This document shows, piece by piece, positions 1,277 to 19,422 of a stretch of 24,191 nt of DNA; position 1 is the first letter of the stretch, and each line of letters starts with the position of its first letter. Source of the stretch: a virus (Duplodnaviria > Heunggongvirae > Uroviricota > Caudoviricetes); IMG/VR virus record IMGVR_UViG_2734482770_000005, positions 1-24,191 of that record, one strand, 5' to 3'. The position numbers and the translations under genes were made by a program. Below the pieces are notes generated by a model. The model was not told the origin of the DNA, ran no database searches, and was given only the letters and a program-made list of their open reading frames with translations.

Positions 1277-1837
1277 TTTCCTTCTGTGTTGATTTGTGTG
1301 TAGTGATTATTGATCGTGTTGATTAGGTGTGTAAAGGACTTTTTTCACTACGAAATTCGAAGGTTTTTAGTGTGGTGATTTAGCCTGCTTTATCACTACA
1401 CGTCTTGCATGAGAATCATGTAGTTACATTTTGGTAAAATTAGCAAGCTATTAAATAGTGTGTTTATTTTGAAAAAATAATTTTTTGTTGCATTAAAGGA
1501 AACTTGTTCGACAAATAATAGATTGATTTTTAATCAACAATTTCTGATAGTGCTCTGTAAGCCGTATTACACAAGGCTTTGCGAAAGTGATGTAAAAGTG
1601 AAGAAAGCTAACATTGCACTTTTTAAGCTACTTTTCATTGGATTTTTACGTAGGAATTACACAGGGATTAATCATCAATTACATTGAATTTAAGCCTGTT
1701 TTAGATGTTTAATTTTGGTAGCAAGAAACACTTTTAGAAGATCATTGCACAGATGCTATGTGATGATTGGATGTAACGGTAGGTCACTGTGAGCTACCCC
1801 TATCAAGTCTGATACCCGATAAGTATAAATAACACCT

Positions 1838-1931
1838 GGGAAATGAGTTCCGATCTATTTAGGAAATAACCGTGGAAGTGGTTTCCTACCTACCTAGGAA
1901 ATGAGTTCCTATCACCTAGGAAATGATTTCC
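1838..1931. repeat. array of 13-bp GGAA-N5-TTCC dyad motifs (at least 4 copies), putative protein-binding sites
   Basis: ggaaatgagttcc (1838-1850), ggaagtggtttcc (1874-1886), ggaaatgagttcc (1898-1910) and the perfect palindrome ggaaatgatttcc (1919-1931); the last two are preceded by cctag. Confidence 0.5.
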
Positions 1932-2019
1932 GACAATACTATAATTAAACTACAATTAAACTATATAATATAATTCTTTTTTATCTTTATAAGAATAATT
2001 ATAGGGATACCCGTTAGGG

Positions 2020-2093
2020 AGTCTAACGACTATCCCTTAATCTATTGGCATTCGCCAGAACCTTGCACAAGTTAGAGTGTTAGTCGTTAGACT
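2020..2093. repeat. 12-bp perfect inverted repeat pair (agtctaacgact / agtcgttagact) with about 50 bp spacer
   Basis: Arms at 2020-2031 and 2082-2093 are exact reverse complements. A nested 7-bp inverted repeat agggata/tatccct lies at 2003-2009 and 2031-2037. Confidence 0.4.
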
Positions 2094-2793
2094 GCTTGTC
2101 ATAACACATAGTTTTTGTTTGTTGATGTTAGTTAGTAGATCTATGTTCGCTAATGCCGCTCACAACGAATATGTAATCTACTATGTGCAAATAGCCTACG
2201 GCTTGCGTAAGGCTAAATAGTCTTGCGCTGTGCGCTTCAATAGTTCCATTGATGAGGCTTACGCCAATCTAACGATCATCAATCTATTTAAGAGAAAATC
2301 TATTGTGCAATACTCTGACGAGTGCAATAACCTTGTGTGCTACGCGTTAGCGATGTTAGCACATAGACACAGACAACAACCAACAACAAACAAAAAAGAA
2401 AGAATGGTTTTAGTAGTTGAAGGTTAAATAAGTTTCTACCGCTTAAATCAAGCCGTAGGCGAGCTAAACGTATATAAGGCAGGGAAACCTTAGCGGTAAT
2501 AGATTAGCTCATTATAGAGCTTCTGAGGAGCTTTACAGGTATTTTATAAGGTGTCTGAAATTAGAGTTTATCTATCATCTCCTTTTCATATACCTAACAA
2601 ATACAAAATAAGCCCCTTAAATAAACCTCTGGCGAGCTAAACTGTCATTACATAAGGGAATGTATTGTTTTTATCAAAACCTCGTTAGAACGCGTTTTAG
2701 AGAATAAGGAAGAATAGCATCACACAGAAGAGCACGAATTGCTAAGCAAAATCATAACATACTGAAAAATGATCAATATTTTATGGGCGGGGG

Positions 2794-2828
2794 TTGACAA
2801 AAGCCTTTAGTTATGGTAAAGTAATATT
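2794..2828 (+). promoter_or_regulatory. candidate sigma70-like promoter for the + strand gene run
   Basis: Consensus -35 TTGACA at 2794-2799 inside gggggttgacaaaag, with AT-rich -10 candidates downstream (taaagt at 17 bp spacing, taatat further on). About 120 bp upstream of the first well-supported + strand ORF. Confidence 0.3.
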
Positions 2829-2945
2829 AGGGACAGGAAAACATTCCTATCCTCTAAATAATTAAACCAATGCACCGCACTTTGAAGCCCAAGAGGCTTG
2901 CAAGGTGTCTTTTTCTTTTAACCAAATAGAATAGGAGGTTAATTA

Positions 2946-3122
2946 GTGAAGTATTTCACTTCTCAAGATGTAGTTGAAGCCTGGAAACGTGGTGAGATCA
3001 ACCGCTTTAGGGTAAGAATGAATAGGAACACAGCGCGACGCTGTGGTTATCCAGAGCGTGAAAAATGTTTTGACGATGCACTAAAAATTATTGATGAACT
3101 GCGTAAAGCAGAGAAAGAATAA
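2946..3122 (+). CDS. hypothetical small protein (58 aa, GTG start)
   Basis: aggagg ribosome-binding site at 2932-2937, GTG at 2946, in-frame to TAA at 3120-3122; product VKYFTSQDVVEAWKRGEINRF...ELRKAEKE. Absent from the ORF track because of the GTG start. Confidence 0.4.
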   Translation: MKYFTSQDVVEAWKRGEINRFRVRMNRNTARRCGYPEREKCFDDALKIIDELRKAEKE

Positions 3123-3145
3123 TAACAGGAGAAGGAGAAAACCAA

Positions 3146-3334
3146 ATGAATATTAATTTTGATTCTGCAACTTATAACGCGTTGTTAAATCGTGCAAAGG
3201 CAGAAGGGAAATCAATTCCAAAACTTGTTAATGAATTACTAATTACAGTCCTTACAAAGGAGGAACTAAATGATCAAAAATATCAAAACAATTGCCGAAG
3301 CGAAAGCCAAATGTCTAAATCAGAAAGATGGTAA
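3146..3334 (+). CDS. small DNA-binding protein, ribbon-helix-helix (CopG/Arc-like) fold suspected
   Basis: Ribosome-binding site ggagaaggag then ATG at 3146. N-terminal MNINFDSATYNALLNRAKAEGKSIPKLVNELL fits a beta-strand plus helix pattern typical of RHH regulators. The 3' end overlaps the next gene's strong start at 3270. Confidence 0.45.
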   Translation: MNINFDSATYNALLNRAKAEGKSIPKLVNELLITVLTKEELNDQKYQNNCRSESQMSKSERW

Positions 3335-3938
3335 ACAAAAATATGTAGTCGTTGAGCAGTGGTTGAAGATGTTTAAAAAGTGGTTCTCACCGTCAGGTAA
3401 TGAATACACCGCTACACTGCCAGCCGTTGAAATCTATAGCTATATAGCTGGATTCAATGAACAAGGGCAAGAATGTTACGCCACTCAAAAAACATTATCT
3501 AATATTGGAATGGTTAGTGATCGCCAGGTTCGCAATATTATAAATATGTTTGTTGATATGGGAGTTCTTTCTGTAGAGGCTCGGGACGGGCAAACATCAC
3601 TCTATAAAGCATTACCATTCACAGATGCACATATTACTCCCCCTGGAGAGTCATCACTACCTGATCCTTCTGAGAAAGAAGACGAATCTAATGAAATATT
3701 GAATGTTTCCGAAATCATCGTTGAAGAAGAAACACAAGAGCCAGAGTTCCCTGAGCGGCCCGAAATTTTTACTTGGCTTCTTTCCCTTGATAAGAAGAAA
3801 CCACCGCACGAAGAAACAGAAGATTTTGTAAAACGAGCATTAGATTCAAAGAATATCTATCTTTGTGAAAATGATTTTGACTCTTTGATAATTGATCTCA
3901 AAAGTGAGAGCACAATATATGATTCACTACCCTTTTAA
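3270..3938 (+). CDS. hypothetical protein with N-terminal winged-helix-like DNA-binding region and acidic C-terminal tail (222 aa)
   Basis: Strong ribosome-binding site aaaggagg 6 nt upstream of ATG. The segment YATQKTLSNIGMVSDRQVRNIINMFVDMGVLSV looks like an HTH recognition helix; the C-terminus is Glu/Asp-rich. Confidence 0.55.
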   Translation: MIKNIKTIAEAKAKCLNQKDGKQKYVVVEQWLKMFKKWFSPSGNEYTATLPAVEIYSYIAGFNEQGQECYATQKTLSNIGMVSDRQVRNIINMFVDMGVLSVEARDGQTSLYKALPFTDAHITPPGESSLPDPSEKEDESNEILNVSEIIVEEETQEPEFPERPEIFTWLLSLDKKKPPHEETEDFVKRALDSKNIYLCENDFDSLIIDLKSESTIYDSLPF

Positions 3939-3947
3939 GGAGAATAA

Positions 3948-4205
3948 ATGGCTTATAACATCACTATAGGAAACAAAACTATTGAAATAACTGAAAGCGG
4001 ATACAACATTTTAAAAGCTATTTTGGACATAGAGTTCTCACCGCCGACAGTGGTTAGCTTTTGTAGTTTAGGCGGCTACAGCGCACAACACGTCAATCGT
4101 TTTACATCGTTCGGTGTGCTGGATTATGAAGGGATTAACAGCACTACATTTCGTCTTTTGAAATTAAACAAAGATTTTGAATTGTTTCTCACAAACAATC
4201 AATAA
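3948..4205 (+). CDS. hypothetical protein (85 aa)
   Basis: Ribosome-binding site aaggag immediately upstream; tightly packed after the previous gene. Confidence 0.5.
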   Translation: MAYNITIGNKTIEITESGYNILKAILDIEFSPPTVVSFCSLGGYSAQHVNRFTSFGVLDYEGINSTTFRLLKLNKDFELFLTNNQ

Positions 4206-4302
4206 CAACAGATCGGGCAATACATATGGCAAATGCATTTATGGCGATATTCATCGTAACAATGGCGTCCAGTTTTTATAATCCACATAAAAAGAGGGAA
4301 AA

Positions 4303-4686
4303 ATGGGAAGAAAGAAAAAGAACAACTTAAAACGTATTGAAAAAAACAGTAATTTCAATTCAAAAAGACAACGTCCACCGACACACACCAATAACGAAAT
4401 TCCAGGGGAAGAGATAATCTTTATTCTTGAAACAGAATCCCCTGAATTAAGTGATGAAGAATTAGAAATAATCCAATCAATGCCAGGCGTTTACTTTCGC
4501 CCAAGAACAAGAAAACAAACTATCATTTCTGATGGCACTCTGAAACGTTGGCAGCTTTTAGGGTTTAGCTCCTATCATCATTTTTTGGGATTTAACGCTT
4601 TCAATAATTGTGTAGGTGGTGCATCGGAAGTCGATCTGATGGCTCATTTAGAAGATACATTAGCTTCTAACAAACGTTCTAACTAA
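4303..4686 (+). CDS. hypothetical protein (127 aa) with very basic N-terminus
   Basis: agaggg ribosome-binding site upstream of ATG; N-terminus MGRKKKNNLKRIEK... Confidence 0.45.
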   Translation: MGRKKKNNLKRIEKNSNFNSKRQRPPTHTNNEIPGEEIIFILETESPELSDEELEIIQSMPGVYFRPRTRKQTIISDGTLKRWQLLGFSSYHHFLGFNAFNNCVGGASEVDLMAHLEDTLASNKRSN

Positions 4687-4701
4687 TAAAATGATGGGTG
4701 T

Positions 4702-4947
4702 ATGTATAAGCGCCCAATGAAAATATTCAAAAAAGGAAAAATAATGATTGGCTATATTCAAGAAACACAATTATTTCAGATGATCCTGTCTGATGCAAAA
4801 AACTATGCAGAGTTAATTCGGCTGGCAAAAGAAACAGAAGACTACGAAGCATTAGAGCGTTACCGTGATGAAGTGCTGACGCTCAAGACACCTTTTAACA
4901 TCGTATTGAATATGATTAATGATGCATTACAAGGAGAATACGCATAA
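4702..4947 (+). CDS. hypothetical protein (81 aa; alternative start at 4744, MIGYIQ...)
   Basis: ORF in track; the internal ATG at 4744 is preceded by aaaaaggaaaaa. Stop overlaps the start of the next ORF (ATAATGG). Confidence 0.4.
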   Translation: MYKRPMKIFKKGKIMIGYIQETQLFQMILSDAKNYAELIRLAKETEDYEALERYRDEVLTLKTPFNIVLNMINDALQGEYA

Positions 4948-5246
4948 TGGAAGAAGATATTAGCAATGCAATGGAACAACTTTTAGATCTGACTATCTCA
5001 CTACAAACAAGAATAAATCAAGCCTATTCAGATTTATGCGATTACACGCTCTCTCAATGCGTTATTAGCTTAATGAAGGTGAATGTAAGCCTTGACGATT
5101 TTATCTCTCTGGTGAGCGTATCAGAGGACGATGCAAAACAGTGTAATCAAATCATCACAGACATCGCCACCACGTTAAAGGTTGCAAGTGAAGAGATTCA
5201 GCAATTAGTAGATGATTTAGCAAAAAGTGCTATTTTCTCTAAATGA
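4947..5246 (+). CDS. hypothetical protein (99 aa)
   Basis: aaggag ribosome-binding site upstream; start overlaps the previous stop, suggesting an operon. Confidence 0.5.
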   Translation: MEEDISNAMEQLLDLTISLQTRINQAYSDLCDYTLSQCVISLMKVNVSLDDFISLVSVSEDDAKQCNQIITDIATTLKVASEEIQQLVDDLAKSAIFSK

Positions 5247-6188
5247 TAATGAAAATTATTTGCATTTATAATGATTTTGTTATATAATAATTTTAGGGGT
5301 AGATAAAAAGATTTTAGTTGGTGTTAATCCTTCTACTGTCATAAATCCCTGCATATGGAAGGTGATAGCCTCAAAGGTTGAGTGGCATTAACCTCTAACA
5401 AATATTACCTTCCATCTCTCAAGAAGTTTTAGAATAATCATAACTCCCTCTTTGATTGTTGATTGTTTCTACGTTGTGTTGATGAATGTTGTTAGGCATT
5501 GTGCTTAATTTTGATAAAAGCGGGTAGGTGTTATCTCCTTGCCCTTCCCGCTCTTATTTTTCATCTATGCTTATCCTAAAGCTCCTTATTTTGTCAGAAA
5601 ACATTAAAGAGCCTTACACTGATAGTTATATTTTATAACTATTTACTAACATCATTAAACTATTATTTAATGACAGAAGTTAGTAACAGAATAATCTATT
5701 AAGTTGTTGTCAAAAACAATCATCTGCATAGCGTTAGCCGCAAGCAGAGAGAGTTTAGCTAAGAATGGTGCAATAAACTTTGGAAATATTGATAGCAAAA
5801 CGGGTTTTATAGAATGCGGATCTATAAGCTTTGGTTGTAAAAACGATTTTCTGAAACGGTAGATTACTGTTGGTGTAGTTAATCATTATTAAAAATTTAA
5901 TCTGTGAGTAGATTGGAATAGTGATTCCTTAAAATCTGACTGGTGCATCCACACCATGAAAGATAGCGGTTGGCCACCGCGCCCCGAATAGATATTCCTG
6001 ATTGATTCCGCATGTTTTCCTAAGAGCATGTTTTCAGGAGTATCTATTCACCCTTTAAGCATATCATCAAGTATATTTAAAAAGTGTATTTGCTGATATG
6101 TTTAATCCTCTTATAGTTTAACTTATCAATTATGTAATTGCCCGCACGTTAAAGCCCCTTTGCTGGTCAGAATTAACCTCTTACGGCA

Positions 6189-6428
6189 TTGGGGCTTTTT
6201 ATTTGTCTGGCACTAACAGGAACATTATTTATGAAACAAGAAATGATTATCAGCAAAGACGGGGAAACGATGATTGTTAGTGATGAAAACCTCATTAAGG
6301 TTGCCGCACTGTTGGGAGTTACTCCCGAAAGTCTTCGTTCTACCACTGCTCAATTATTTAAATCGGCTGATGCGGTTAGTCTTGCTGATGCCCTTAAATC
6401 TAAAATTAAACAACTGAAAGGAAAATAA
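6189..6428 (+). CDS. hypothetical small protein (79 aa; more likely starts at 6231, MKQEMII..., 65 aa)
   Basis: ORF in track; in-frame ATG at 6231 follows aacaggaac. Confidence 0.45.
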   Translation: MGLFICLALTGTLFMKQEMIISKDGETMIVSDENLIKVAALLGVTPESLRSTTAQLFKSADAVSLADALKSKIKQLKGK

Positions 6429-6432
6429 TCTT

Positions 6433-6816
6433 ATGGCTAACCCATATGGAAAATTAAAAGCAGTGAATGCGGATAACTCCCGTTCACGCTGTAAGGTAGT
6501 AGCTTACGCTGCTGATCCAGTGCTGCAAGATCGCCTCGTCAAACTGGCTTCACCTCTCACTGACGATCTTATTGTCGGGGCTTTGCTGAAAGCCGATGGC
6601 ACCAAAGCAACAACCGCATCTGATATTGCTCACGTAGTAGTTGAACCGGCTTATGAAGGACAGGAAAGCGTAGTGGTTGCACATCCTACTTTCGTTATTC
6701 TGGCTGAAGATGGGATTGAATTTAACAGCATGGAAAAGGCAAGTGTTATTGCAAAACTGCAATCTCTCGGCTTTGTAATTGCTGGTTATGAAGAACTTGC
6801 GATCCCTACGACTTAA
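6433..6816 (+). CDS. hypothetical protein (127 aa), first gene of a structural-like block
   Basis: Ribosome-binding site aaaggaaaa; 4 bp after the previous stop; same strand and tight spacing as following genes. Confidence 0.55.
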   Translation: MANPYGKLKAVNADNSRSRCKVVAYAADPVLQDRLVKLASPLTDDLIVGALLKADGTKATTASDIAHVVVEPAYEGQESVVVAHPTFVILAEDGIEFNSMEKASVIAKLQSLGFVIAGYEELAIPTT

Positions 6817-6830
6817 CAAGGAAAATAATA

Positions 6831-7862
6831 ATGAATGATTTATCAACATATTTTGGCGTTAATACTGCGGTAGTAACTCCATTTGCTTATGAGAATGCAC
6901 TTAATACCCTGATTACTAATCTCGATCTGTTCGATGTGCAATATCATACAGAAAACAGCATTCTTCTTACCGACCTGATTGATCAGTTTGTGCAGGTAGC
7001 TGGGGAAACCTCGCCTTACGCTCAAAGCGACTGGAACGCCTCTAAACGTCAGGAATGGTCAAACAAACTTTTCCAGATGAAACACGTCGGCAGTATTAAC
7101 GCTGTTACTTCTCGTGACCTGGAACAATACAGCCGCCAATATCCAAACCGTTCTGATGCTATGCTGGTAGCGGTTAATGATTTCTCTGAGGCTCATTACC
7201 GTTCACACGCAAACCGTGTTGAAGTGGATCTGATTACCGCGCTGCTGGGCCTGAAAGTTGAATCTGAATATGCCGGACAAGGTGATCTCGACTTCCTCGA
7301 CGGTCAGGCTAAAACCACGGTACCCGCTATCGACTTTGCATCGACTACTGTTAACCCGTTCCTTGCTATTCGTAAAGCGGTGCGCTTACAGAGTGAAAAG
7401 CTGGGGTCTGGTCTTGCTGCAAAGCGAACTGGTGTAATTATCTTTGCTGCTGGCACTGCTGCTGATGGTTTGTCATCTAACCCGCTGATCAGTGACATGG
7501 TGAAATATGCAGGCGATGCGAGTGCTACGGCCCTGTTTACCCGTATGGTTGATTCTAACCCAGCCTATGACTCTTTCCAGATTGGTGGGATCACTGTTAT
7601 TGATGTGTCAATGTTTCCTGAGATTGTTGCTCACATCGGAGAGAACGGTTTCGCAATTGTTCCGGTAATGGATAAAGCGGCACAGTGTTACCAGCTTCAT
7701 AGCGGCGTTGGTGTGCGTCATGCTGAGTTAGGTCAAGATGCCGTGTTGCATCACCAATATCTAATCAAGGATGAATTCCAATTCCCATCTGTGGTTACTG
7801 AGACATCTTATCTGCCAGTAAACAACATTCCGCAAGCTATCATCTTCGGATCTGCTGCGTAA
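6831..7862 (+). CDS. hypothetical protein (343 aa), possible virion or structural component
   Basis: Ribosome-binding site aaggaaaa; long uninterrupted ORF with a different codon and GC profile from the P4 part. No catalytic motif recognised. Confidence 0.6.
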   Translation: MNDLSTYFGVNTAVVTPFAYENALNTLITNLDLFDVQYHTENSILLTDLIDQFVQVAGETSPYAQSDWNASKRQEWSNKLFQMKHVGSINAVTSRDLEQYSRQYPNRSDAMLVAVNDFSEAHYRSHANRVEVDLITALLGLKVESEYAGQGDLDFLDGQAKTTVPAIDFASTTVNPFLAIRKAVRLQSEKLGSGLAAKRTGVIIFAAGTAADGLSSNPLISDMVKYAGDASATALFTRMVDSNPAYDSFQIGGITVIDVSMFPEIVAHIGENGFAIVPVMDKAAQCYQLHSGVGVRHAELGQDAVLHHQYLIKDEFQFPSVVTETSYLPVNNIPQAIIFGSAA

Positions 7863-8013
7863 TAAAGCGTTAATAGACGATTCCCCATCGGGGCAATAAG
7901 GGTAAAGGGATTAACTAACCTGTAGGCGCAAATACAGTAACGAATCTCTTTGCCCTTTTTGTTTTTCTACTGTCTACAAACCCAAATAAAAATATATATG
8001 TGAGAGAAAACCA

Positions 8014-8211
8014 ATGAATACAGAAAACCCACAATCCTTTATTCTTAAGGCTGTAAAAGAACTGGCAGCTATTAGCGAGGAATCAGTTATAAACACATCG
8101 GCGCTTTGCCGCCTTTTAGAAATTGATGCAAATAATGTGCGCCAGCGTGTCTTTCAGACTGGGTGCAGCACTTTCGAAGCAATTCAATACTATTGCTCTA
8201 AAAAACAATAA
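8014..8211 (+). CDS. hypothetical small protein (65 aa)
   Basis: ORF in track in the gap between two larger + strand genes; weak ribosome-binding site. Confidence 0.3.
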   Translation: MNTENPQSFILKAVKELAAISEESVINTSALCRLLEIDANNVRQRVFQTGCSTFEAIQYYCSKKQ

Positions 8212-8245
8212 TAAACAACAATCATAATACAGGGAAACAATTAGC

Positions 8246-10087
8246 ATGTTAGAACTTAACGTCAGCCGCTTATCAAACGTTGTCACCTTCCAGGTTGATC
8301 GACCATCATTAGAGAAAGCAAAAGCAGAAGTAGAAAAACTTCGTAAACAAATGGCGGCGGTGAAAGATATAGAATTGCGTGTTAAGACACATAAACAATC
8401 AACTTCTAAAGCAAAAAAAGACGTAGACGATATTGCTAAAAAGCAAGCACAGGCAGATAAAGCCAATGCTAAAGCACAATTAGCCGCTCAACGTGTAGTT
8501 GCAAGAGAACAAAAAGCCCTGGCAGCACGCAAAGAGAAGGCAGACTTAAAACTGTTAGACGTTGGATCAAGCATTAGTGCATTGCACCGCCTTTCTGTAG
8601 CGGAACAATATAAAGCTATTGCACAGGCTAGAGAAATTGCCCTCCAATATGAAAGAGGAGCTATTAGTCTGGCACGTATGAATAGCCAAATGAAACGCCT
8701 ACAACAGCAACAACGTAAGATTAATGGCAATCGTAACGCTCACGCTAAAGCCTATGCACCTGTTAAGGGTAGCGGGAGTATTGGCGGCGGTGCTGCGGCT
8801 GTTATGCTGGGTGGCTTAGGCGCTGGCGCTACGTATATGGCTATGAGCAAAGCCTCTGAATTTGTTACTAACAGCTTTGCGAATGCTGAAACGCTGGGTG
8901 AATTGTATAGCCGTGCGAAGCTGGGCGGTGTAGACGTTAACCAGATGAACAATATTGAGCAATGGGCCTACAAAAACGGCGTTGATTCAATGATGGGGGA
9001 TCAAGGTAAACGTAAGTATCTCGATCAGATGAAAGATGTGCGTGAGCGTGCAACCAAAAGCTATGATGAGGCTGAATATGTAGTCGATAAAAAAACAGGC
9101 AAAGGTGAATGGAAGGGCGGCGATAGCGGCATCAATACTTTAATGAATGAAGGATTCTTAACTAAAAAGGATCTAAAAGACTTTGCTGATAATCCGGCTG
9201 GTCTGGTTAGTAAAGCAGTTCAGGGAATGGTGAAGAAAGGCTATTCAGATGCACAAATCGGTAGTCGTCTGGAAGATCTGGCTGATGATTTGATGCTCAC
9301 CTCTAAATACTGGACACGCTCCGCTAAAGAAGTGGAACAATCAGCACGAGAACAACGAGAATCAGGGCGCTGGGTAACACAGGCACAACAGGAAAGCGTT
9401 ATTAAATTCCGTGAACTGAATAATGCACTTAGTGGGCTTTCTGACTCACAAGGGATCGCCTTTGTTGATGGCTTTATGAAATCTCTTGATCCGAAAGTGA
9501 TTGAAGAGTTTAAAAAGAGCATGGTTGCAATGCTGCCAATGTTTACCAAATTAGGCGAGGCTATCGGCGGATTGGTTAACGCCGTAATGAAAACAATCAA
9601 CTGGCTGATGAAAAACGACGAGAAGACGGAAGCTATTCAGAAGAATTTAGGGGATGCACCGCCACTATCTAACGAAGGAATGAAGCAGAATCTTTCTAAT
9701 CTCACTCCTGATCAATATAAAGGCGCTGGCACCGGAACAACTAAGCCAGATAACAGCAATTCCCTGGTTAACACTATTAAAAGCTGGTTTATGCCAGAAG
9801 AAACGGTAGGTGGGGCGCAGGCTGTAAATCAATACAGTCTCGAAGGACAAAACATTGCAAATCTGAAACAGAGTGCAGCACAACAAGCTTTCAAGGCTCC
9901 TTCTTACACCTTTGCACCTGTTATTAACTTCAATCCAGAATTACAAGTAAATGCAGAAGTGCCGCTAACTATCGAATCAGACACCGGACGATTGAGCGAA
10001 TTTATCGACTTCAAATCAAAGGCATCCTCCGCTGAGTTTAGCAAGCTATTAACGCTGGGTGTTATGTCAGGCGGGTCAACCTATTAA
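8246..10087 (+). CDS. large coiled-coil protein with Gly/Ala-rich hydrophobic segment (613 aa); tape-measure-like or membrane-associated structural protein
   Basis: N-terminal 150 aa are Lys/Ala/Gln/Glu-rich heptad-like sequence (EKAKAEVEKLRKQMAAVK..., KAQLAAQRVVAREQKALAARKEKADLK); then GSGSIGGGAAAVMLGGLGAGATYMAM, a glycine-zipper-like hydrophobic stretch. Confidence 0.6.
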   Translation: MLELNVSRLSNVVTFQVDRPSLEKAKAEVEKLRKQMAAVKDIELRVKTHKQSTSKAKKDVDDIAKKQAQADKANAKAQLAAQRVVAREQKALAARKEKADLKLLDVGSSISALHRLSVAEQYKAIAQAREIALQYERGAISLARMNSQMKRLQQQQRKINGNRNAHAKAYAPVKGSGSIGGGAAAVMLGGLGAGATYMAMSKASEFVTNSFANAETLGELYSRAKLGGVDVNQMNNIEQWAYKNGVDSMMGDQGKRKYLDQMKDVRERATKSYDEAEYVVDKKTGKGEWKGGDSGINTLMNEGFLTKKDLKDFADNPAGLVSKAVQGMVKKGYSDAQIGSRLEDLADDLMLTSKYWTRSAKEVEQSAREQRESGRWVTQAQQESVIKFRELNNALSGLSDSQGIAFVDGFMKSLDPKVIEEFKKSMVAMLPMFTKLGEAIGGLVNAVMKTINWLMKNDEKTEAIQKNLGDAPPLSNEGMKQNLSNLTPDQYKGAGTGTTKPDNSNSLVNTIKSWFMPEETVGGAQAVNQYSLEGQNIANLKQSAAQQAFKAPSYTFAPVINFNPELQVNAEVPLTIESDTGRLSEFIDFKSKASSAEFSKLLTLGVMSGGSTY

Positions 10088-10134
10088 TCATCACTGTGGG
10101 GCTGTTTAGCCCCCTTAAATAAGGATTACAAATT

Positions 10135-10812
10135 ATGGCAATGGGTCCGTTAACCATTGGTCGCCCGACTGAGGCGAAAATCAACAGCACAAGCAACGAT
10201 AGCAACGGTAGAACAACCAAAGGGGGTAACGGCTTTGCGATCATTACCTCTAATCTCGGCAGTGGTGCAAATGCTGCTTACAATGACTACCAGGCATTAT
10301 CATTTGATAGCGTGGAATCGACGAAAGTTAGCAGAAATGCGGACGTTACAAGCTATGCCGTCGAATCAGGATCAGAAGTTAGTGATCATGTTCAAATACG
10401 GAATAACAAGTTCACATTACAAGGGCGTATCTCTGAAACCGTATTGAAGCTCAATCCTGATATGATTAAGAATGCTGGAATTAACGGCAATCGACGTATG
10501 CTTATGCTTGAATACCTAAATCAGTTGATGGACAGTCGCCAACCTTTCCTACTTGTCACTGAGTTAAAAAATTATGACAACGTTGTGTTAGTTGGCATGT
10601 CTTACGAAGAAGAAGCAAGCGAAAGCCTATTGTTTACTCTTGATTTTGAGCAAATCCGTCTTGTCTCTAAAGCAACTACAAGCGCAATTGCGGTAAAAAC
10701 AGCACCAAATAAATCTGTAGGAGGCCAGGTTAAAATGCAGGTAAATACAACAGAACAGAAAAATCAAAAAAGCCCAGGGCAAGACGTTGTAACGCCAGTA
10801 TTTAAACAATAG
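10135..10812 (+). CDS. hypothetical protein (225 aa)
   Basis: aagga ribosome-binding site; follows the 613 aa gene after a short hairpin-containing gap. Confidence 0.55.
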   Translation: MAMGPLTIGRPTEAKINSTSNDSNGRTTKGGNGFAIITSNLGSGANAAYNDYQALSFDSVESTKVSRNADVTSYAVESGSEVSDHVQIRNNKFTLQGRISETVLKLNPDMIKNAGINGNRRMLMLEYLNQLMDSRQPFLLVTELKNYDNVVLVGMSYEEEASESLLFTLDFEQIRLVSKATTSAIAVKTAPNKSVGGQVKMQVNTTEQKNQKSPGQDVVTPVFKQ

Positions 10813-10853
10813 CCTTAAACGCCTATGAAACGCTCTGTAACGAGATAATCATA

Positions 10854-10885
10854 AAAGAGGCATCAGTCTATATTGAAGCCTCTTT
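10854..10885. terminator. hairpin between convergent genes, candidate intrinsic terminator (best fit for the - strand integrase transcript)
   Basis: Perfect 8-bp stem aaagaggc / gcctcttt around a 16-nt loop; on the - strand the stem is followed by a U-rich run (uuuuaugauuau). Confidence 0.4.
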
Positions 10886-10892
10886 ATTACGT

Positions 10893-12257
10893 CTATAGCG
10901 TTGTTTTACGCCTTAAATTTGATTTTTTATTGATTGATAAGCCTTTCTCTATTTCAGGGTAGCGTAAAAGCTCAATATATTTTTTAAGCTCTATTGGAGA
11001 AGCTGCATTTTTGCTATATGTGCGGAATGTTTCTGTATTGCCGCGTGTATGGCCCAGGAGAAGGGCGATCCTGTCTTCTGGAATTTGATTTCGATCAAGA
11101 AGCTGTGCTACTCCGTGTCTCAGAGAATGAAACACTTTCCTTTCTGTTCCCTTTTCCCCTAAAGCCTTTCGTTTAGCTCTTGTAAATCGTTGTGTATGCC
11201 ACGTAGAGCGTTTACCGTCAGCACGTTCTGTAATGCTGGCGTGATAGAACAAAAAGCCATTGTGAGGCTTTTCACGCAGCGACAACACCAACGGAGTGAT
11301 AAGGTTATGCACAGGCACAACACGTGCCGCAGCTTTCGTCTTTCCCTGTGTGATTTCAAAACACAGCACACCTTCGATCTCTTTCACATCGTCTATTGTG
11401 AGACTTGCTATCTCATTGATCCGCATACCTGTATATAAACCGATAAGACACAAAGCCGTCATTTCTTTGTTTTCTGCTGAATTACCGGAAAATACTTGCA
11501 ACACCTGCAATAGCTCTTTGTTAGAAAATGCCTCGTAGCTCTCTCTACTTTGTGCCACATCAAGCCTATGCCCTCGCCAGGGGGAGAGCGCCCTTTCTGG
11601 CGCATCGTGGTAACGTGATGAAGCTAATTCCCATAGCTGGGCCATTGGACTGATATAATTTGCAATTGATTGTTGTGAAAGAGTTTTTTGCATGTGTTCA
11701 ATCCAGCCTGTAACAGTGGTGCGGCTTACATCTTGCAATGCAATATCAGGCTTTTTACGGTAGGAGAGAAACATCTCTACCGCTTTTCTTGCCTTAGCTA
11801 AAGTGGCTGGCTTCTTCTTCGTGCTGTTAATTGTCAGGTAGATTTCAAGAATTTTAAGCAATGACGGACACGAAGACGCTGTATCTTGCACTCTGGTAGC
11901 TGTTTTGGCGTATTTAGCCTTACTGCGTAACAGTTCCAGCGTGTTTTCTATTGTGCTGTTTACAGGGGCAACACTCTCCCGTAAGCAATGGTATTCATCT
12001 GCAATCTGATCACGCTTTCTACGTGCAACACGAAGATTACTTGTGTGTAGACTTCTGACAAACGTCCTTTTTCCTTCAAAAAAGGGCTGCATATACACAG
12101 GCAGCGTGATCCTTAAATAGTAGTTACCGTAAGAATCACAGATTAAGTATTGGTTAGGCTTGTATCTCATAAAATCTCCGGCTAAAGTGTCGGAGCGTTT
12201 GTAATGTGAAAATTGATTGTGACGCATAGAAAATGATGATTTTTCTATAAGATTCAA
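10893..12257 (-). CDS. tyrosine recombinase / phage-type integrase (454 aa)
   Basis: C-terminal catalytic region carries integrase signatures: GMRINEIASLTIDDV, HSLRHGVAQLL (H-x-x-R box) and LLGHTRGNTETFRTYSKN (tyrosine nucleophile region). Confidence 0.8.
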   Translation of the reverse strand: MNLIEKSSFSMRHNQFSHYKRSDTLAGDFMRYKPNQYLICDSYGNYYLRITLPVYMQPFFEGKRTFVRSLHTSNLRVARRKRDQIADEYHCLRESVAPVNSTIENTLELLRSKAKYAKTATRVQDTASSCPSLLKILEIYLTINSTKKKPATLAKARKAVEMFLSYRKKPDIALQDVSRTTVTGWIEHMQKTLSQQSIANYISPMAQLWELASSRYHDAPERALSPWRGHRLDVAQSRESYEAFSNKELLQVLQVFSGNSAENKEMTALCLIGLYTGMRINEIASLTIDDVKEIEGVLCFEITQGKTKAAARVVPVHNLITPLVLSLREKPHNGFLFYHASITERADGKRSTWHTQRFTRAKRKALGEKGTERKVFHSLRHGVAQLLDRNQIPEDRIALLLGHTRGNTETFRTYSKNAASPIELKKYIELLRYPEIEKGLSINKKSNLRRKTTL

Positions 12258-12314
12258 TCAATTAGTAATGGTCGTAGGTGATGGCATTAACACGAGATTA
12301 ATCGAGTGTTTTAC

Positions 12315-12332
12315 TCCTATTATCGGCACCAT
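12315..12332. repeat. candidate attL core of the P4-like element (direct repeat of 23639-23655)
   Basis: tcctattatcggcaccat here matches tcctattatcgcaccat at 23639-23655 with one 1-nt indel; both copies sit at the expected outer edges (int side and crr side). Confidence 0.4.
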
Positions 12333-12495
12333 CTCCACTTCTTCAAACATCCGTATTTATCCATAACCGCACTGTTTTATAAAAGATTTTTTGTTTTTAC
12401 TGTTCGTATTAGTCCATAACTTTCCAGTAGAATCCAGTACTAAATGTGTATAGGATTATGTATATGTTCCTGTTCGATTTTGGAATTCTATACAC

Positions 12496-13680
12496 ATGCC
12501 CCTAAATGATATGCAGATTCGCCGTGCTAAACCTGAAGCTAAAGCCTATACACTTGGGGATGGGCAAGGGTTGTCTTTACTTGTAGAGCCAAATGGAAGT
12601 AAAAGCTGGCGATTTCGTTATCGCTATGCCGGTAAACCCAAAATGATCTCGCTTGGTGTTTACCCAACGATCACTCTTGCTGATGCTCGTTCCCGTCGTG
12701 ATGAAGCTCGAAAACTTGTGGCAGAAGGAAAGAACCCTAGTGAGGTTCGAAAAGAGCAAAAGCTGGCTCTGCAAACAGAGTCAGAGAACGCCTTCGAAAA
12801 GATAGCCAGAGAGTGGCATCAACAGAAGTCTACCAAATGGTCGGCGGGATATGCATCAGACATCATGGAAGCGTTTAAGAACGACATTTTTCCTTATGTG
12901 GGAACAAGGCCAGTGGGAGAGATTAAACCGCTAGAACTGCTTAATGTGCTGCGTAAAATCGAAAAGCGCGGTGCATTAGAAAAAATGCGCAAAGTTCGGC
13001 AGCGATGCTCAGAAGTTTTCCGCTATGCCATTGCTACTGGAAGGGCTGAGTTTAACCCTGCTGCGGATCTTTCAAGCGCCCTCAATGTACACCAATCAAA
13101 TCATTTCCCGTTCTTAAAGGCTAATGAGATACCTGATTTTCTTCGCGCCTTAAACGGATATACCGGAAGTCGGCTTGTCCTGATTGCCACGAAATTGCTC
13201 ATGATTACAGGTGTTAGAACCATCGAATTACGTGCGGCATTATGGTCAGAATTTGATTTAGATAACGCTATTTGGGAAATTCCTGCTGAAAGGATGAAAA
13301 TGCGCAGATCACACCTTGTGCCTTTGTCGACTCAAGCGTTAGATTTGCTAAATGAACTCAAGATGATGACAGGGAAGTATAGTTATGTTTTTCCGGGGCG
13401 GAACGATCCGAACAAGCCTATGAGTGAGGCGAGTATTAACCAAGTTATCAAGCGTATTGGTTATGGTGGAAAACTTACTGGTCATGGATTTCGACATTCC
13501 TTATCTACTATCCTCCACGAAAAAGGATATGATTCGGCTTGGATAGAAATACAGCTTGCTCATATAGATAAGAATAATATTAGAGGTACGTATAATCATG
13601 CTCAATATATTGATAAACGCCGTGATATGATGCAGTGGTATTCAGATTATATTTTTATTAAGGAGAATGTGAATGAGTAA
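12496..13680 (+). CDS. int: P4-type tyrosine integrase (394 aa)
   Basis: N-terminal arm-binding region typical of P4/CP4-57 integrases (MQIRRAKPEAKAYTLGDGQGLSLLVEPNGSKSWRFRYRYAGK); C-terminal catalytic motifs HGFRHSLSTIL and LAHIDKNNIRGTYNHAQYIDKRRDMMQWY. Confidence 0.9.
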   Translation: MPLNDMQIRRAKPEAKAYTLGDGQGLSLLVEPNGSKSWRFRYRYAGKPKMISLGVYPTITLADARSRRDEARKLVAEGKNPSEVRKEQKLALQTESENAFEKIAREWHQQKSTKWSAGYASDIMEAFKNDIFPYVGTRPVGEIKPLELLNVLRKIEKRGALEKMRKVRQRCSEVFRYAIATGRAEFNPAADLSSALNVHQSNHFPFLKANEIPDFLRALNGYTGSRLVLIATKLLMITGVRTIELRAALWSEFDLDNAIWEIPAERMKMRRSHLVPLSTQALDLLNELKMMTGKYSYVFPGRNDPNKPMSEASINQVIKRIGYGGKLTGHGFRHSLSTILHEKGYDSAWIEIQLAHIDKNNIRGTYNHAQYIDKRRDMMQWYSDYIFIKENVNE

Positions 13681-15301
13681 CGAGTTTGATAGTAGTAAAC
13701 TAGAAAATTGCTTTGAGCTTGCATTGGAAAATATTATAAAGCACGGCGATACAGATATTTTCCCTTACCCATTTGAAAGTCGGTTATTTGAAGATGATAA
13801 GGAGAAAGTAAAAACTGCATTAATGCAAACATTTAATGACTTTGAAAATAAAAGGATCGAGATTCCACCAAACATAATTAATAGCTTTTCAAGTATTGGT
13901 TATTATGGTTACAGGTGGGCGACCCAAATTGATCCATTCTGGAATGCTTTTTTTCTTGGGTTAGTTTTAAAAATCGCTGATGATATTGAAAGGAATAGAT
14001 CTACTAAAACGCAGGTTTATTCATATCGCTTTAAACCAAACCTTGCTGATGGTTCTCTTTTTGATAAAGAGATCTCTTGGAGAAAATATCAAGAAGACAG
14101 TATCTCTGAATGTTCTAACGATGAAATAAAGTATGTACTTACATGCGATATAGCAGATTTCTATCCGCGTATTTATCACCACCGTTTAGAAAATGCGTTA
14201 GATAGAGTCGACCCCAATAAAGATTACTCTGGGAAAATCAAGAAATTACTACAGACATTTAGTGAAACAAAATCATATGGAGTACCAGTTGGATGTCCTG
14301 CCTCTAGAATATTAGCAGAACTAGCTCTAGATTCTATTGATAAATTATTGTCTATGAATAGAATCAACTATAAGCGTTATGTCGACGACTTTGTTATTTT
14401 TTGTAACTCTAGAGAGGATGCTCATAAGATTTTAACTTTGCTTAGTAAAAAACTGATGGAAAATGAAGGGCTAACTTTACAGAAACAAAAAACCAATATT
14501 GTTACTAAAGAAGAGTTCCTTTCAGTAACTAAAGCTAAGTTGCATGGTAATGATGAAGATGAAGAATCTCCTATGAAGGCTAAATTTATGAGTCTTCCTA
14601 TAAGATTCGATCCTTACTCAGCAAATGCGATAGAGGAATATGAAGAGATAAAGGAATCTTTAAAAGATTTTGACTTGTTAGCTATGCTGAGTAGTGAGTT
14701 ACAAAAATCAAAAATTAACCAATCTTTTAGCAAGCATTTGATAAAGGCATTCTCAGCAACATCAGATGAAATAATAAGTAGTGCTTTCAAAGTAATGTTT
14801 AATAACTTGCATGAGTTATATCCAATATTTACAACTATAATTCAAGTAGCTAACTCCAACTGGCAAAAATTAAGCACAGAAACCAAAGATATTATTCTTG
14901 ATAAAATAACTGCACTAATTAAACAAGATTCATATATTTTGAGTACTGAGCTCAACTTAGCCTATGTAGCCCGAATGCTCTCAAAAGAAAATTCAGAAAA
15001 ATCCACCCTAATCCTTAGTGAAATATACAATAACAATCCAGAAAGCATCTTAGTCAAGAACATAGTTACACAGTCAATGGCAAAAATTAATTCTTACGCA
15101 TGGCTTTCTGATATCAAAAAAAATTTCTCTGCAATGCATCCGTTGCAGAGAAGACTATTGATCGTTTCCAGTTACATCTTAGGTGATGAAGGACGGCACT
15201 GGAGAGAGCATAATAAGAAAACATTCAACTTTGTAGAGGTGATTTACAGGGATTGGGCAAGTAAAAGGCATACCGCAAGAAATCTTGAGGATGCGCTATG
15301 A
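13673..15301 (+). CDS. reverse transcriptase (542 aa) with helical C-terminal extension; non-retron, non-intron defence-type RT suspected
   Basis: RT motif A CDIADFYPRIYHH, motif B SYGVPVGCPASRILAELALDSID, motif C with catalytic YVDD (YKRYVDDFVIF). Start overlaps the int stop by 8 nt with aagga ribosome-binding site. GC is visibly lower than in neighbouring P4 genes. Confidence 0.85.
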   Translation: MSNEFDSSKLENCFELALENIIKHGDTDIFPYPFESRLFEDDKEKVKTALMQTFNDFENKRIEIPPNIINSFSSIGYYGYRWATQIDPFWNAFFLGLVLKIADDIERNRSTKTQVYSYRFKPNLADGSLFDKEISWRKYQEDSISECSNDEIKYVLTCDIADFYPRIYHHRLENALDRVDPNKDYSGKIKKLLQTFSETKSYGVPVGCPASRILAELALDSIDKLLSMNRINYKRYVDDFVIFCNSREDAHKILTLLSKKLMENEGLTLQKQKTNIVTKEEFLSVTKAKLHGNDEDEESPMKAKFMSLPIRFDPYSANAIEEYEEIKESLKDFDLLAMLSSELQKSKINQSFSKHLIKAFSATSDEIISSAFKVMFNNLHELYPIFTTIIQVANSNWQKLSTETKDIILDKITALIKQDSYILSTELNLAYVARMLSKENSEKSTLILSEIYNNNPESILVKNIVTQSMAKINSYAWLSDIKKNFSAMHPLQRRLLIVSSYILGDEGRHWREHNKKTFNFVEVIYRDWASKRHTARNLEDAL

Positions 15302-16038
15302 TATCTGAATTAACGTTTTCTCGAAAATTCACTTCATTTTGGAATCAATTGCTTCCAAATGCTAATAATTTCATACGCATCATTAACGGCAGTCTCATCG
15401 AGGACGTTTATCCTCCTCTAGATGACTGCGCTAATAGGTCAAATAACGTCTTTGTTAATGAGTGCGCATTTAATTTATATAGGGCAATACAGAATGATTC
15501 GTTAGACAGAAATATTCTTTCAGCACATGATATCTTCCATAATGCTGATTTTCAGGTTGTTTTTGAAAAAACAAAAGAATATCTACAGCGGTTCGCTTAC
15601 GGTTCTAACTTCAAGCTACCCTTAAGCATGGTTGAGTACAATGCCATAAGGGAAATAGCAAGAAACATTTTGTCTCGATATGGAATGGAAAACCAAATTG
15701 AAGTGTCTCCACAATTCGATGGATGCGGAGTAATAAATAATTCATATGGCGATATTTATTATTCAAATGTTCTTGTGGAAATAAAATCAGGAGATAGGAA
15801 GTTTAGTGTTTACGATCTTAGACAGGTGCTAATATATTTCACTTTAAACTTTTACTCAAAAAACAAAAGAAACATCAAGAGATTTGAGCTTTTCAATCCT
15901 CGGATGGGTATCACTTATAGTGATACCATTGTCAACCTTTGCAAAGAGTTGGCGTTTATTCAACCTGAAGAATTGTACTTTGAGATAATGAATTCTATTA
16001 CAGAAGAAAATTTCATAGTAACTGAAATGCAACGCTAG
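15298..16038 (+). CDS. RT-associated accessory protein (246 aa), putative effector; function unknown
   Basis: ATGA start/stop overlap with the RT gene (translational coupling). Soluble, no obvious transmembrane segment. Weak motifs: R-x5-H (DRNILSAHD) and D-x11-E-x-K (GDIYYSNVLVEIK). Confidence 0.6.
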   Translation: MISELTFSRKFTSFWNQLLPNANNFIRIINGSLIEDVYPPLDDCANRSNNVFVNECAFNLYRAIQNDSLDRNILSAHDIFHNADFQVVFEKTKEYLQRFAYGSNFKLPLSMVEYNAIREIARNILSRYGMENQIEVSPQFDGCGVINNSYGDIYYSNVLVEIKSGDRKFSVYDLRQVLIYFTLNFYSKNKRNIKRFELFNPRMGITYSDTIVNLCKELAFIQPEELYFEIMNSITEENFIVTEMQR

Positions 16039-16047
16039 ATATCATGC

Positions 16048-16075
16048 AGACCGCTACAATCCATTGTAGTGGTCT
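16048..16075 (+). terminator. stem-loop just after the accessory gene stop, possible terminator or RNA structure
   Basis: agaccgctacaat cc attgtagtggtct gives a 13-bp stem with one G-U pair, 10 nt after the TAG stop, followed by atttct. Confidence 0.35.
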
Positions 16076-16157
16076 ATTTCTAAACGTTCCTTCTGACGAA
16101 TAAAGCCAAAATACCAAATAGAATTAAAGAAAATTATAATATCAGCCTTAGCGCGCA

Positions 16158-16176
16158 ATGCTCCCCCCGCCACGCC
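16158..16176. other. cos: candidate cos site (P2/P4-type 19-nt cohesive end sequence)
   Basis: Minus-strand reading of 16158-16176 is GGCGTGGCGGGGGGAGCAT, which matches the P2/P4 cohesive end as I recall it (GGCGAGGCGGGGAAAGCAC) at 15 of 19 positions. It sits between the cargo and psu, where cos lies in circular P4. Confidence 0.45.
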
Positions 16177-16278
16177 CGCCCGCTTTGCGGGGCGGTTTTA
16201 ATGCAGTTGCACTGACACGCTCAGACCGCGCCGGGAATGGCGCGGTCTGCAGAAAATGAGGCAGGGAAACGCATGCAA

Positions 16279-16310
16279 AGCCATGCACCTTATCGATGCA
16301 TGGCTTTTTT
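16279..16310 (+). terminator. Rho-independent terminator (+ strand orientation) before the psu 3' end
   Basis: Perfect 9-bp stem agccatgca / tgcatggct with 9-nt loop, followed by a run of five T (16306-16310). Confidence 0.55.
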
Positions 16311-16340
16311 CAGTAAAAACGGGCGGATTTTCGGGGAATT

Positions 16341-16913
16341 TTACACAGACTGACGTGATGCCAGTTGCGCACTTTTACGCGAAAAAATCATGTTCTGCGC
16401 AGGGGTGAATTTTTCACGGCTGTCATCCACCGAAGCCGCGTCAGGCCTGAATCCGATGGTCGTTAAAATGTCGCTATCCTGTGCGGAATAATTAATTTTT
16501 TCCCCCTTCGCAAGCCAGGACAGAAGGGCTTCACGCAGGGCATCTGTGGCACGCTGTATGGCACAGTTTCGGGCAATGGCCGTCAGCTCACTGTAGCCCA
16601 TCAGCTCCGGTGCCAGTGCGGCCGCCAGTACTGTGCCGTGCTGCTGCATAAAATCATTCAGCCGGTCGCGGATGCTGATGTGCTGAACGGCTTCATGCGA
16701 ACGAATATAACGACCGGCGGCCTGATTCACCTGCCATTTTCTGACTTCGATAATATTGCGTAATTCGTCCAGGCGGCTGACGTTTCTGCCTTCTCCTGAC
16801 AGAAGCCGCAGATATTCCTGTTCGGCCGCTGCCAGCTCATTTTTGCGTTGCAGCCATGCTGCTTTGTTATTCTGACAGGTGTCAAAGGCCTGCTGTAAGG
16901 CTGTGCTTTCCAT
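16341..16913 (-). CDS. psu: P4 Psu (polarity suppression / capsid decoration protein), 190 aa
   Basis: 190 aa, the P4 Psu length; the sequence MESTALQQAFDTCQNNKAAWLQRKNELAAAEQEY... matches P4 Psu as I recall it; position immediately 5' of delta and sid on the same strand. Confidence 0.8.
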   Translation of the reverse strand: MESTALQQAFDTCQNNKAAWLQRKNELAAAEQEYLRLLSGEGRNVSRLDELRNIIEVRKWQVNQAAGRYIRSHEAVQHISIRDRLNDFMQQHGTVLAAALAPELMGYSELTAIARNCAIQRATDALREALLSWLAKGEKINYSAQDSDILTTIGFRPDAASVDDSREKFTPAQNMIFSRKSAQLASRQSV

Positions 16914-16986: not shown

Positions 16987-17487
16987 TCATTCCAGACGCA
17001 GCGAATATGATTGTGTTTTTAAGCGTACTGGCGGCAGTTCCTGTTTTTCATGCAGGCTTTCTGCCAGTTCGTCCGGCGTGACCGGGCGGACAATGAAGCG
17101 GTTGATGGTCTGAAGCGTTTTAAACACCAGACCACAGCCCGGATCCGTGCACACATAAAAACGCTCGGTGACTTCCTGAGACAGACGCCGCGATGTTCTT
17201 GACAGTGCAAGGCCTTTACATCTCCGACAACAATATCCGGTAACAAGCATTCTTTTCGGGCGTTTCATACTGCCGGAGGCTGACGTCAGTGAATCGCGGT
17301 ATCTCTGTTTGCCTGAAATGTATTCCATTCCTGAATCTTTACAGTCAGAGAAAAAGCTTTCACTCGCTTCAAATGTCGCAGAGCAATAAATATTCCGGCA
17401 CTGTGCAATCATTATCTTGGTGCCATCGTCCATGAAATGTGCGCGACGGGTGTGAGCAACATGTCCACACGACGGGCAGTAAATCAT
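16987..17487 (-). CDS. delta: P4 Delta late-gene activator (Ogr/Delta zinc-finger family), 166 aa
   Basis: Two Cys-rich Ogr-like modules (CPSCGHVAH...CRNIYC and CCRRCKG...CTDPGC); 166 aa as in P4 Delta; overlaps the sid stop by 4 nt. Confidence 0.85.
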   Translation of the reverse strand: MIYCPSCGHVAHTRRAHFMDDGTKIMIAQCRNIYCSATFEASESFFSDCKDSGMEYISGKQRYRDSLTSASGSMKRPKRMLVTGYCCRRCKGLALSRTSRRLSQEVTERFYVCTDPGCGLVFKTLQTINRFIVRPVTPDELAESLHEKQELPPVRLKTQSYSLRLE

Positions 17488-19036: not shown

Positions 19037-19130
19037 TGATGCCCGCTCTGCAAAAAGTCCCTTTTTCTGGCTTGCCTTTTTCCGGCATTTGCGGATATAG
19101 TTTTTCCGCTGCCGCAAAATCGGCAGCCGG

Positions 19131-19422
19131 GCGTGAGAACCCGGGCAATCTAACGGCGACATATGACGCGCCATGCGTCTTTTTTTGTGTCGCAATCAAC
19201 GCCACAGAGCGCCAGATTATGGTGTGGTGTGTGGTCAGTCGTGCAGATGGCACTCCGTGCATCCTGCCCGCGTCCGCTCATTATGCCGCAGAGTCAATGG
19301 TAGCTCAGGCGGGGCAGCCTCCGGGCTGGCCGGTATCCGTTAGAGCCGGTATTCTCACCCCCGTCTGGGCTATCGCCATCGAGCGTGAGAACTCCGGCGA
19401 TAGCGTAACCTGCTATCTAACG
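19131..19422 (+). ncRNA. putative P4-type immunity-RNA region (seqA / seqB / seqC-like arrangement)
   Basis: Direct repeats gcgtgagaacccgggcaatctaacgg (19131-19156) and gcgtgagaactccggcga...ctatctaacgg (19383-19422) flank ccgttagagccgg (19337-19349), which is complementary to the ccggc...tctaacgg part of both repeats. No well-supported protein ORF covers the interval. Confidence 0.3.

Follow-up and report, generated by a model that had tools for sequence, protein, structure and literature searches.

We analysed a window of 24,191 nucleotides (nt), positions 1 to 24,191 of the IMG/VR virus record IMGVR_UViG_2734482770_000005 (Caudoviricetes). Our results suggest, with a probability of about 0.85, that its positions 13673-16038 encode a two-gene DRT type 8 (DRT8) defence system, made of a UG7 reverse transcriptase (RT) and a PD-(D/E)XK nuclease, which is carried as cargo in the int-psu hotspot of an Escherichia coli P4-like satellite prophage. 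In this reading the nuclease is predicted to be metal-dependent and to resemble RecB, Cas4, MGME1 and Dna2, with an active site formed by D152, E161 and K163 and supported by Q176 and Y180, and without the iron-sulfur (Fe-S) cluster of Cas4. DRT8 itself is already known, as a published system that has been described and experimentally validated. The features of the pair are the following (aa, amino acids):

13673-15301, + strand: DRT8 reverse transcriptase (UG7 group, Class 1 UG/Abi), 542 aa, identified by PADLOC Drt8 and Pfam RVT_1
15287-15291, + strand: GAGGA, Shine-Dalgarno sequence of the nuclease gene, lying within the RT coding sequence, read from the sequence
15298-16038, + strand: the 246-aa nuclease partner of DRT8, an RT-associated PD-(D/E)XK protein ('cluster 17' in Mestre et al. 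2022)
15508-15528, + strand: R71-x5-H77 of the nuclease protein, a HEPN-like pattern judged to be a chance match and no functional part
15751-15786, + strand: catalytic core D152-x8-E161-x-K163, from conservation in both alignments and the secondary structure of the model
15823-15837, + strand: Q176-x3-Y180 on the helix after the ExK strand, from conservation and helix 171-185 of the model
16048-16075, + strand: 12-bp hairpin followed by UAUUUCU, 10 nt past the nuclease stop, from RNA folding

The assignment to DRT8 is carried by both genes. In PADLOC, the upstream protein matches Drt8 at 4.9e-166 over residues 11-532, the next model (UG21) reaching 1.2e-37, and the downstream protein matches RTasPDDEXK at 5.5e-69 over residues 1-239, that is, over its full length. 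The RT is also recognised as RVT_1 by Pfam (1.2e-18) and keeps an intact catalytic YVDD (residues 236-239, window 14378-14389). The solved RTs closest to it in sequence are UG15/DRT4 (E-value 1.2e-10) and AbiK (E-value 2.2e-7). The locus has the genetic elements that define DRT8, namely a UG7 RT with YxDD and an RTasPDDEXK gene directly downstream. Mestre et al. 2022 (PMC9226505) found that one UG7 variant (variant 1, 150 of 385 members) associates with 'cluster 17', described there only in general terms, as remotely homologous to PD-(D/E)XK and Holliday-junction-resolvase-related proteins. The same study placed UG7 in P2/P4 variable regions, reported robust protection against T5 by UG7 together with the nuclease, named the system DRT type 8, and pointed out that an earlier test of UG7 had missed the associated nuclease gene. 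A DRT8 system lost its immunity when the RT catalytic domain or the PD-(D/E)XK active site was mutated (PMC9226505).

The two genes are tightly linked, in the window and elsewhere. The nuclease ATG at 15298 overlaps the RT stop codon (TGA, 15299-15301) as ATGA, and the GAGGA lies 6 nt 5' of this ATG; the 4-nt overlap suggests translational coupling. The same overlap between the nuclease gene and the gene before it was found in six distant loci, always as ATGA (L002, L003, L004, L006, L007 and L008). At four of these loci the upstream gene is a Drt8-type RT according to PADLOC: in Pseudoalteromonas, in Thalassospira, in Snodgrassella (next to a relaxase), and, with the RT truncated at the end of the contig, beside GmrSD in a metagenome. 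The fifth has an upstream RVT_1 RT of 546 aa and a nuclease 27% identical to that of the window. At the sixth, the upstream gene is cut by the contig end and its identity is not readable. The five loci with a readable upstream RT all have the order RT then nuclease. The genes around the pair are wholly different in each distant locus, and therefore RT and nuclease move as a unit. Judging from this gene arrangement, the linkage of the nuclease to the RT is obligatory.

Past the nuclease gene, the hairpin at 16048-16075 has a folding energy of -17.7 kcal/mol (z = -4.4), none of 200 shuffles folding equally well, and it is probably the intrinsic terminator of a two-gene operon; it is absent from the list produced by a simple terminator scan. 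A promoter scan of 12200-16400 returned 13 sites against 12.6 in shuffles, hence no excess, and the operon promoter was not identified. Rfam gave no non-coding RNA near the RT-nuclease system; the downstream spacer of 300 nt was not searched for covariation.

The sequence-only reading from which this analysis started had rightly placed an open reading frame (ORF) next to the RT, and we confirmed it (ATG at 15298, TAG stop ending at 16038, + strand, 246 aa). It had also pointed to two short nuclease-like motifs in the protein, both of which are where it put them: DRNILSAHD, which contains R71-x5-H77, spans residues 70-78, and GDIYYSNVLVEIK spans residues 151-163. Its spacing of 11 residues between the Asp and the Glu of the latter was a miscount, because D152 and E161 are separated by 8 residues. 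Its warning that such motifs occur by chance was well founded. When the protein was shuffled 20,000 times, 11% of the shuffles contained R-x5-H, 31% R-x4-6-H and 54% D-x5-25-[DE]-x-K, and neither bare pattern exceeds chance.

What separates the two motifs is conservation. We used two alignments: A1, with 43 homologues (89% to 33% identity) aligned out of the 96 retrieved by a word-indexed search, and A2, with 63 family members (25-42% identity) drawn from an exhaustive profile search. The latter returned 1013 clusters at 50% identity with E-value <= 1e-3, and in the best 150 listed clusters the proteins are nearly all stand-alone, about 220-260 aa long, with a match beginning at residue 1. D152, E161 and K163 are each present in 43/43 sequences of A1, and in 63, 62 and 63 of the 63 sequences of A2, respectively; Q176 and Y180 are invariant in both. 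Further positions found in all members of A1 are G142, G144, R167, D173, R175, N200-P201-R202, G204 and the N-terminal M-I-S-E. In contrast, R71 is retained in 6/43 and H77 in 2/43 members of A1, and any R-x4-6-H in the region is found in only six of them; in A2, 43/63 sequences show a gap in the H77 column, and a homologue that still shares 85% identity with the window protein reads LSVPG there, with P in place of H77. Because it is conserved, unlike R71 and H77, D...E-x-K is a real, selected feature, whereas R-x5-H, which lacks conservation and lies in a variable segment prone to indels, is a chance match.

The N-terminus, M-I-(S/T)-E, is itself nearly invariant (43/43 in A1; M in 61, I in 60 and E in 54 of the 63 sequences of A2). 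This may reflect contact with the RT, a constraint imposed by the gene overlap, or a part that E4 plays in catalysis or in the structure.

The predicted structure agrees with a PD-(D/E)XK assignment. An AlphaFold2 model built on A1 has a mean pLDDT of 91.5 and a pTM of 0.89, with no segment under 50. Residues 1-128 are helical and the sheet spans residues 135-210, and the model contains the alpha-beta-beta-beta-alpha-beta core of the restriction-endonuclease-like fold. D152 lies immediately ahead of strand 153-155, at the start of strand 2 of the core, and E161 and K163 are at the end of strand 158-162, which is strand 3, the two forming a beta-hairpin. An Asp before one strand followed by ExK on the next is the canonical catalytic placement in PD-(D/E)XK enzymes. 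Q176 and Y180 are on the following helix (171-185), after the ExK strand, and we take this Q-x3-Y to be the QxxxY motif that defines the branch of RecB, Cas4 and lambda-Exo-type nucleases.

A fold search with the model retrieved the following proteins (score at the end of the line), and no HEPN protein was among the 60 matches listed:

MGME1, 10.2
AdnA and AdnB nuclease domains, 10.1 and 9.8
Dna2, 9.8
ACE1 (an Argonaute-associated Cas4-family protein), 9.2
Exo5, 8.5
Putative exonuclease 3l0a, 8.4
DinG with nuclease domain, 8.4
RecE, 7.7
RecB, 7.5
Cas4 SSO0001, 7.5
AddA, 7.5
Cas4-Cas1, 7.4
Lambda exonuclease, 6.1

Foldseek against viral models gave UvrD-like helicase-nucleases, 'Cas4 family exonuclease' and 'PD-(D/E)XK nuclease' (E-values down to 3.4e-5). 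Taken with the model, these matches place the nuclease in the RecB/Cas4/MGME1/Dna2-like branch of the PD-(D/E)XK superfamily. The four-cysteine Fe-S cluster of Cas4, AddB, Dna2 and Exo5 was not found. Only two columns have at least 50% Cys in A1 or A2: C143 in both alignments, and a second that corresponds to C215 in A1 but, as read from the consensus, to about position 149 in A2, where the window protein has Ser. We thus rejected Cas4 proper: only C143 is widely conserved, and a protein without four conserved cysteines is not a Cas4 in the strict sense.

PADLOC also gave the nuclease a weaker match to PDC-S61 (8.8e-6, residues 145-217) and a faint one to Cas4a2 (0.021, residues 149-194). Both lie on the catalytic core, so PDC-S61, a candidate defence family, may share this nuclease core.

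Several points weigh against our reading. Beyond the family model of PADLOC, no method based on sequence alone ties the protein to known nucleases: Pfam, NCBIfam and PHROGs gave nothing for it (PDDEXK_3 was touched by only 1/43 homologues, at an E-value of 0.13), phmmer and a profile search against the Protein Data Bank (PDB) returned only chance matches to leukocidin and interferon gamma, and hhalign compared the family profile with lambda exonuclease at a probability of 0.2. Foldseek against the PDB put Dna2 on top (E-value 2.2e-3), followed by MGME1, Cas4 and RecB, with weak scores. About half of UG7 RTs are without a nuclease partner (PMC9226505), and the nuclease may therefore be accessory in the wider group. 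As for the mechanism, what is established is that RT and nuclease are both required. Two 2026 reviews class the mechanism of DRT8 as unresolved (PMC13213688; PMC13314766), and searches for DRT8 and for UG7 from 2023 on yielded no mechanistic paper. The substrate and the trigger that we propose below come from structural neighbours only.

With these points in mind, the system might work as follows. The RT is a Class 1 UG/Abi enzyme, and its relatives AbiK and DRT4 make single-stranded DNA (ssDNA) that is protein-primed or untemplated; by analogy, it would make a DNA species. Infection would alter the synthesis or the accumulation of this product, or the complex, and the nuclease would act as the downstream effector, cutting phage DNA, host DNA or both. 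Such cleavage would stop phage replication, possibly at the expense of the cell. The most likely substrate of the nuclease would be an ssDNA end or flap, because its nearest structural relatives work on ssDNA ends or flaps. Rousset et al. 2023 (10.1101/2023.01.24.525353) mention 'the usual nuclease effector' of DRT8 and describe its replacement by a PNP/Cap17 (ATP nucleosidase) domain in one DRT8 system. The swap of the nuclease for an ATP-degrading domain fits a terminal and interchangeable effector.

The alternative that survives best gives the nuclease another role: it would process the RT's own DNA instead of killing, either by maturing or trimming it, or by removing toxic ssDNA until a phage factor blocks the removal, in a guard or antitoxin-like arrangement comparable to DRT4. 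The closest structural relatives are all nucleases of ssDNA ends or flaps (MGME1, Dna2, Cas4, Exo5, AdnAB/RecB, RecE and lambda Exo), the 4-nt overlap of the two genes is strict, and the closest solved relatives of the RT are UG15/DRT4 and AbiK, all of which suit such a role. DRT4 makes template-independent random ssDNA that becomes toxic upon its phage-triggered stabilisation, a phage protein protecting the 3' end (PMC13213688). Yet, active-site mutants of the nuclease are reported to lose immunity and not to turn toxic (PMC9226505), which speaks against the antitoxin form, and the replacement by a PNP domain suits a terminal effector better than a DNA-processing cofactor. We consider this role unlikely. 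As the structural neighbours of the nuclease all thread ssDNA ends and the RT has ssDNA-making Class 1 relatives, DRT8 could then be a cycle of synthesis and trimming acting on the RT's DNA, whose disturbance by a phage factor, such as an ssDNA-binding or end-protecting protein, would trigger immunity; such a cycle has only an outside chance of being right, and if true it would bring a new logic to RT defence systems with two genes.

A terminal nuclease effector of the PD-(D/E)XK type has also to be set against the other proposal of the sequence-only reading, a detached HEPN-type RNase using R71-x5-H77, like the HEPN domain fused to AbiA RTs. The pattern is present at residues 71-77, and RT-HEPN combinations occur in AbiA and in type IX retrons (PMC9226505). 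Nevertheless, a conserved R-x4-6-H is missing from the homologues, the pattern is at chance level in shuffles, and the model has a PD-(D/E)XK fold in place of an all-alpha helical bundle, so we rejected a HEPN RNase as highly improbable. The AbiA analogy itself fails, since the RT is UG7/DRT8 and not AbiA. The idea of a detached nuclease next to the RT was thus half right: conservation, fold, PADLOC and published mutagenesis uphold its PD-(D/E)XK part, and its HEPN part is wrong. The modelling and fold comparison that had been suggested as a check returned the restriction-endonuclease-like core and no HEPN bundle; together with the invariant D152/E161/K163 on a beta-hairpin, the RTasPDDEXK match and the active-site mutagenesis of DRT8 (PMC9226505, for an allele that may not be that of the window), they bear out the PD-(D/E)XK proposal.

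A catalytically dead PD-(D/E)XK fold, serving the RT only as a DNA-binding or scaffold subunit, is scarcely credible and was rejected, because the D/E/K and QxxxY set is invariant across at least 63 diverse members and published active-site mutations abolish defence (PMC9226505).

The genomic setting supports the description of the pair as hotspot cargo. The psu-int locus of P4 is a defence hotspot (Rousset et al. 2022, PMC9122126), and the P4-like element in the window carries its cargo with the integrase on one side and psu on the other. Its features are the following:

12496-13680, + strand: P4-type tyrosine integrase (int), one hotspot border, from Pfam Arm-DNA-bind_3, Phage_int_M and Phage_integrase and from the RefSeq annotation in L001
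16341-16913, - strand: psu (polarity suppression protein), the other hotspot border, Pfam Psu at 4e-88
16987-17487: Ogr/Delta-like zinc-finger gene, after psu
19095-19147: a1/b1 target of the C4 RNA, from Rfam
19108-19185: isrK, from Rfam
19293-19380: C4 antisense RNA (C4/CI immunity RNA), from Rfam, 74.5 bits

The C4, a1/b1 and isrK elements form a P4-type RNA immunity region, which confirms the identity of the satellite. Next after the Ogr/Delta-like gene comes an unannotated ORF of 266 aa, which lies where P4 has sid, and a primase-helicase gene is found further on in the identical RefSeq locus. The GC content of the cargo is 32-35%, whereas the satellite backbone downstream of psu has 50-62%. 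Of 5426 complete E. coli genomes, 105 contain at least 80% of the int-to-nuclease stretch (12496-16340), on the chromosome.

Some details of this locus deserve mention. The RT start codon (13673) is 8 nt inside the 3' end of the int ORF, whose stop is at 13678-13680, and a Shine-Dalgarno sequence for the RT, AAGGAG, is found at 13660-13665. Because the RT start overlaps the integrase end, the defence cargo has no intergenic sequence before it; its junction falls in the final codons of int, and transcription of the operon may continue from int. In three of the best-matching E. coli genomes (H1-H3), the int-DRT8 stretch is broken by an insertion sequence, IS1 in two chicken isolates and IS3 in one human isolate, so some strains may carry an inactivated system. 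GC-rich hairpins occur in the spacer between DRT8 and psu (16150-16340), among them CCGCCCGCTTTGCGGGGCGG (16176-16195) and GACCGCGCC...GGCGCGGTC (about 16224-16249), and this spacer coincides with the cos-proximal region as placed by Rousset et al. (PMC9122126).

Upstream of the P4-like satellite, positions 1-12257 of the window hold a second, different integrative element, with a GC content of 34-38% over about 1000-6500:

719-1276, - strand: serine resolvase
3270-3938: replication-initiator-like helix-turn-helix (HTH) protein
6831-7862: weak major-head-like ORF
8246-10087: tape-measure-like ORF of 613 aa
10135-10812: Dit-like tail protein
10893-12257, - strand: tyrosine integrase of the upstream element

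It has the appearance of a prophage remnant or of a small element, phage-like or satellite-like, that integrated in tandem with the P4-like satellite. In E. coli ECCRA-119, the region upstream of the identical int-DRT8 locus (L001, 4039-8292) differs in content from the window: besides an HTH protein and a DUF4062 protein, it encodes another 'reverse transcriptase domain-containing protein', of 568 aa. The site beside the satellite is thus itself variable, and may carry more defence genes.

Our results have some practical consequences. The 246-aa protein is 'hypothetical' in RefSeq, without a Pfam or NCBIfam label, and its correct label would be DRT8 nuclease effector, PD-(D/E)XK, D152/E161/K163. 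The window adds one more P4-like satellite with a defence system in the int-psu hotspot. To the literature we make a small addition, the type of the effector, which is that of the ssDNA-end-processing nucleases (MGME1, Dna2, Cas4 and RecB), with QxxxY and no Fe-S cluster. This placement narrows the substrates worth testing for DRT8.

Overall, the closest known system is DRT8 as defined by Mestre et al. 2022, from which we found no substantive difference, although the allele tested may be another than that of the window: both proteins match DRT8-specific PADLOC models over their full length, and the gene order, the two-gene architecture and the location in a P4 variable region are the same. AbiA resembles the window system in that a Class 1 UG/Abi RT works in phage defence together with a module that cleaves nucleic acids, but the RT of the window is UG7 and its effector is a separate gene with a PD-(D/E)XK fold, not a fused HEPN domain. 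DRT4 (UG15) and AbiK, like DRT8, have Class 1 UG/Abi RTs of about 540-600 aa; unlike DRT8, each consists of a single gene and has no dedicated nuclease. They produce untemplated or random ssDNA, and such a product could be expected for DRT8 by analogy. Finally, the nucleases of the RecB/Cas4 type (MGME1, Dna2, AdnAB/AddAB/RecB, Cas4, ACE1, Exo5, RecE and lambda Exo) are only 7-14% identical to the window protein, which is fused neither to a helicase nor to Cas1, and whose family has as its own traits an N-terminal helical region with an invariant W15 and the near-invariant MI(S/T)E N-terminus.

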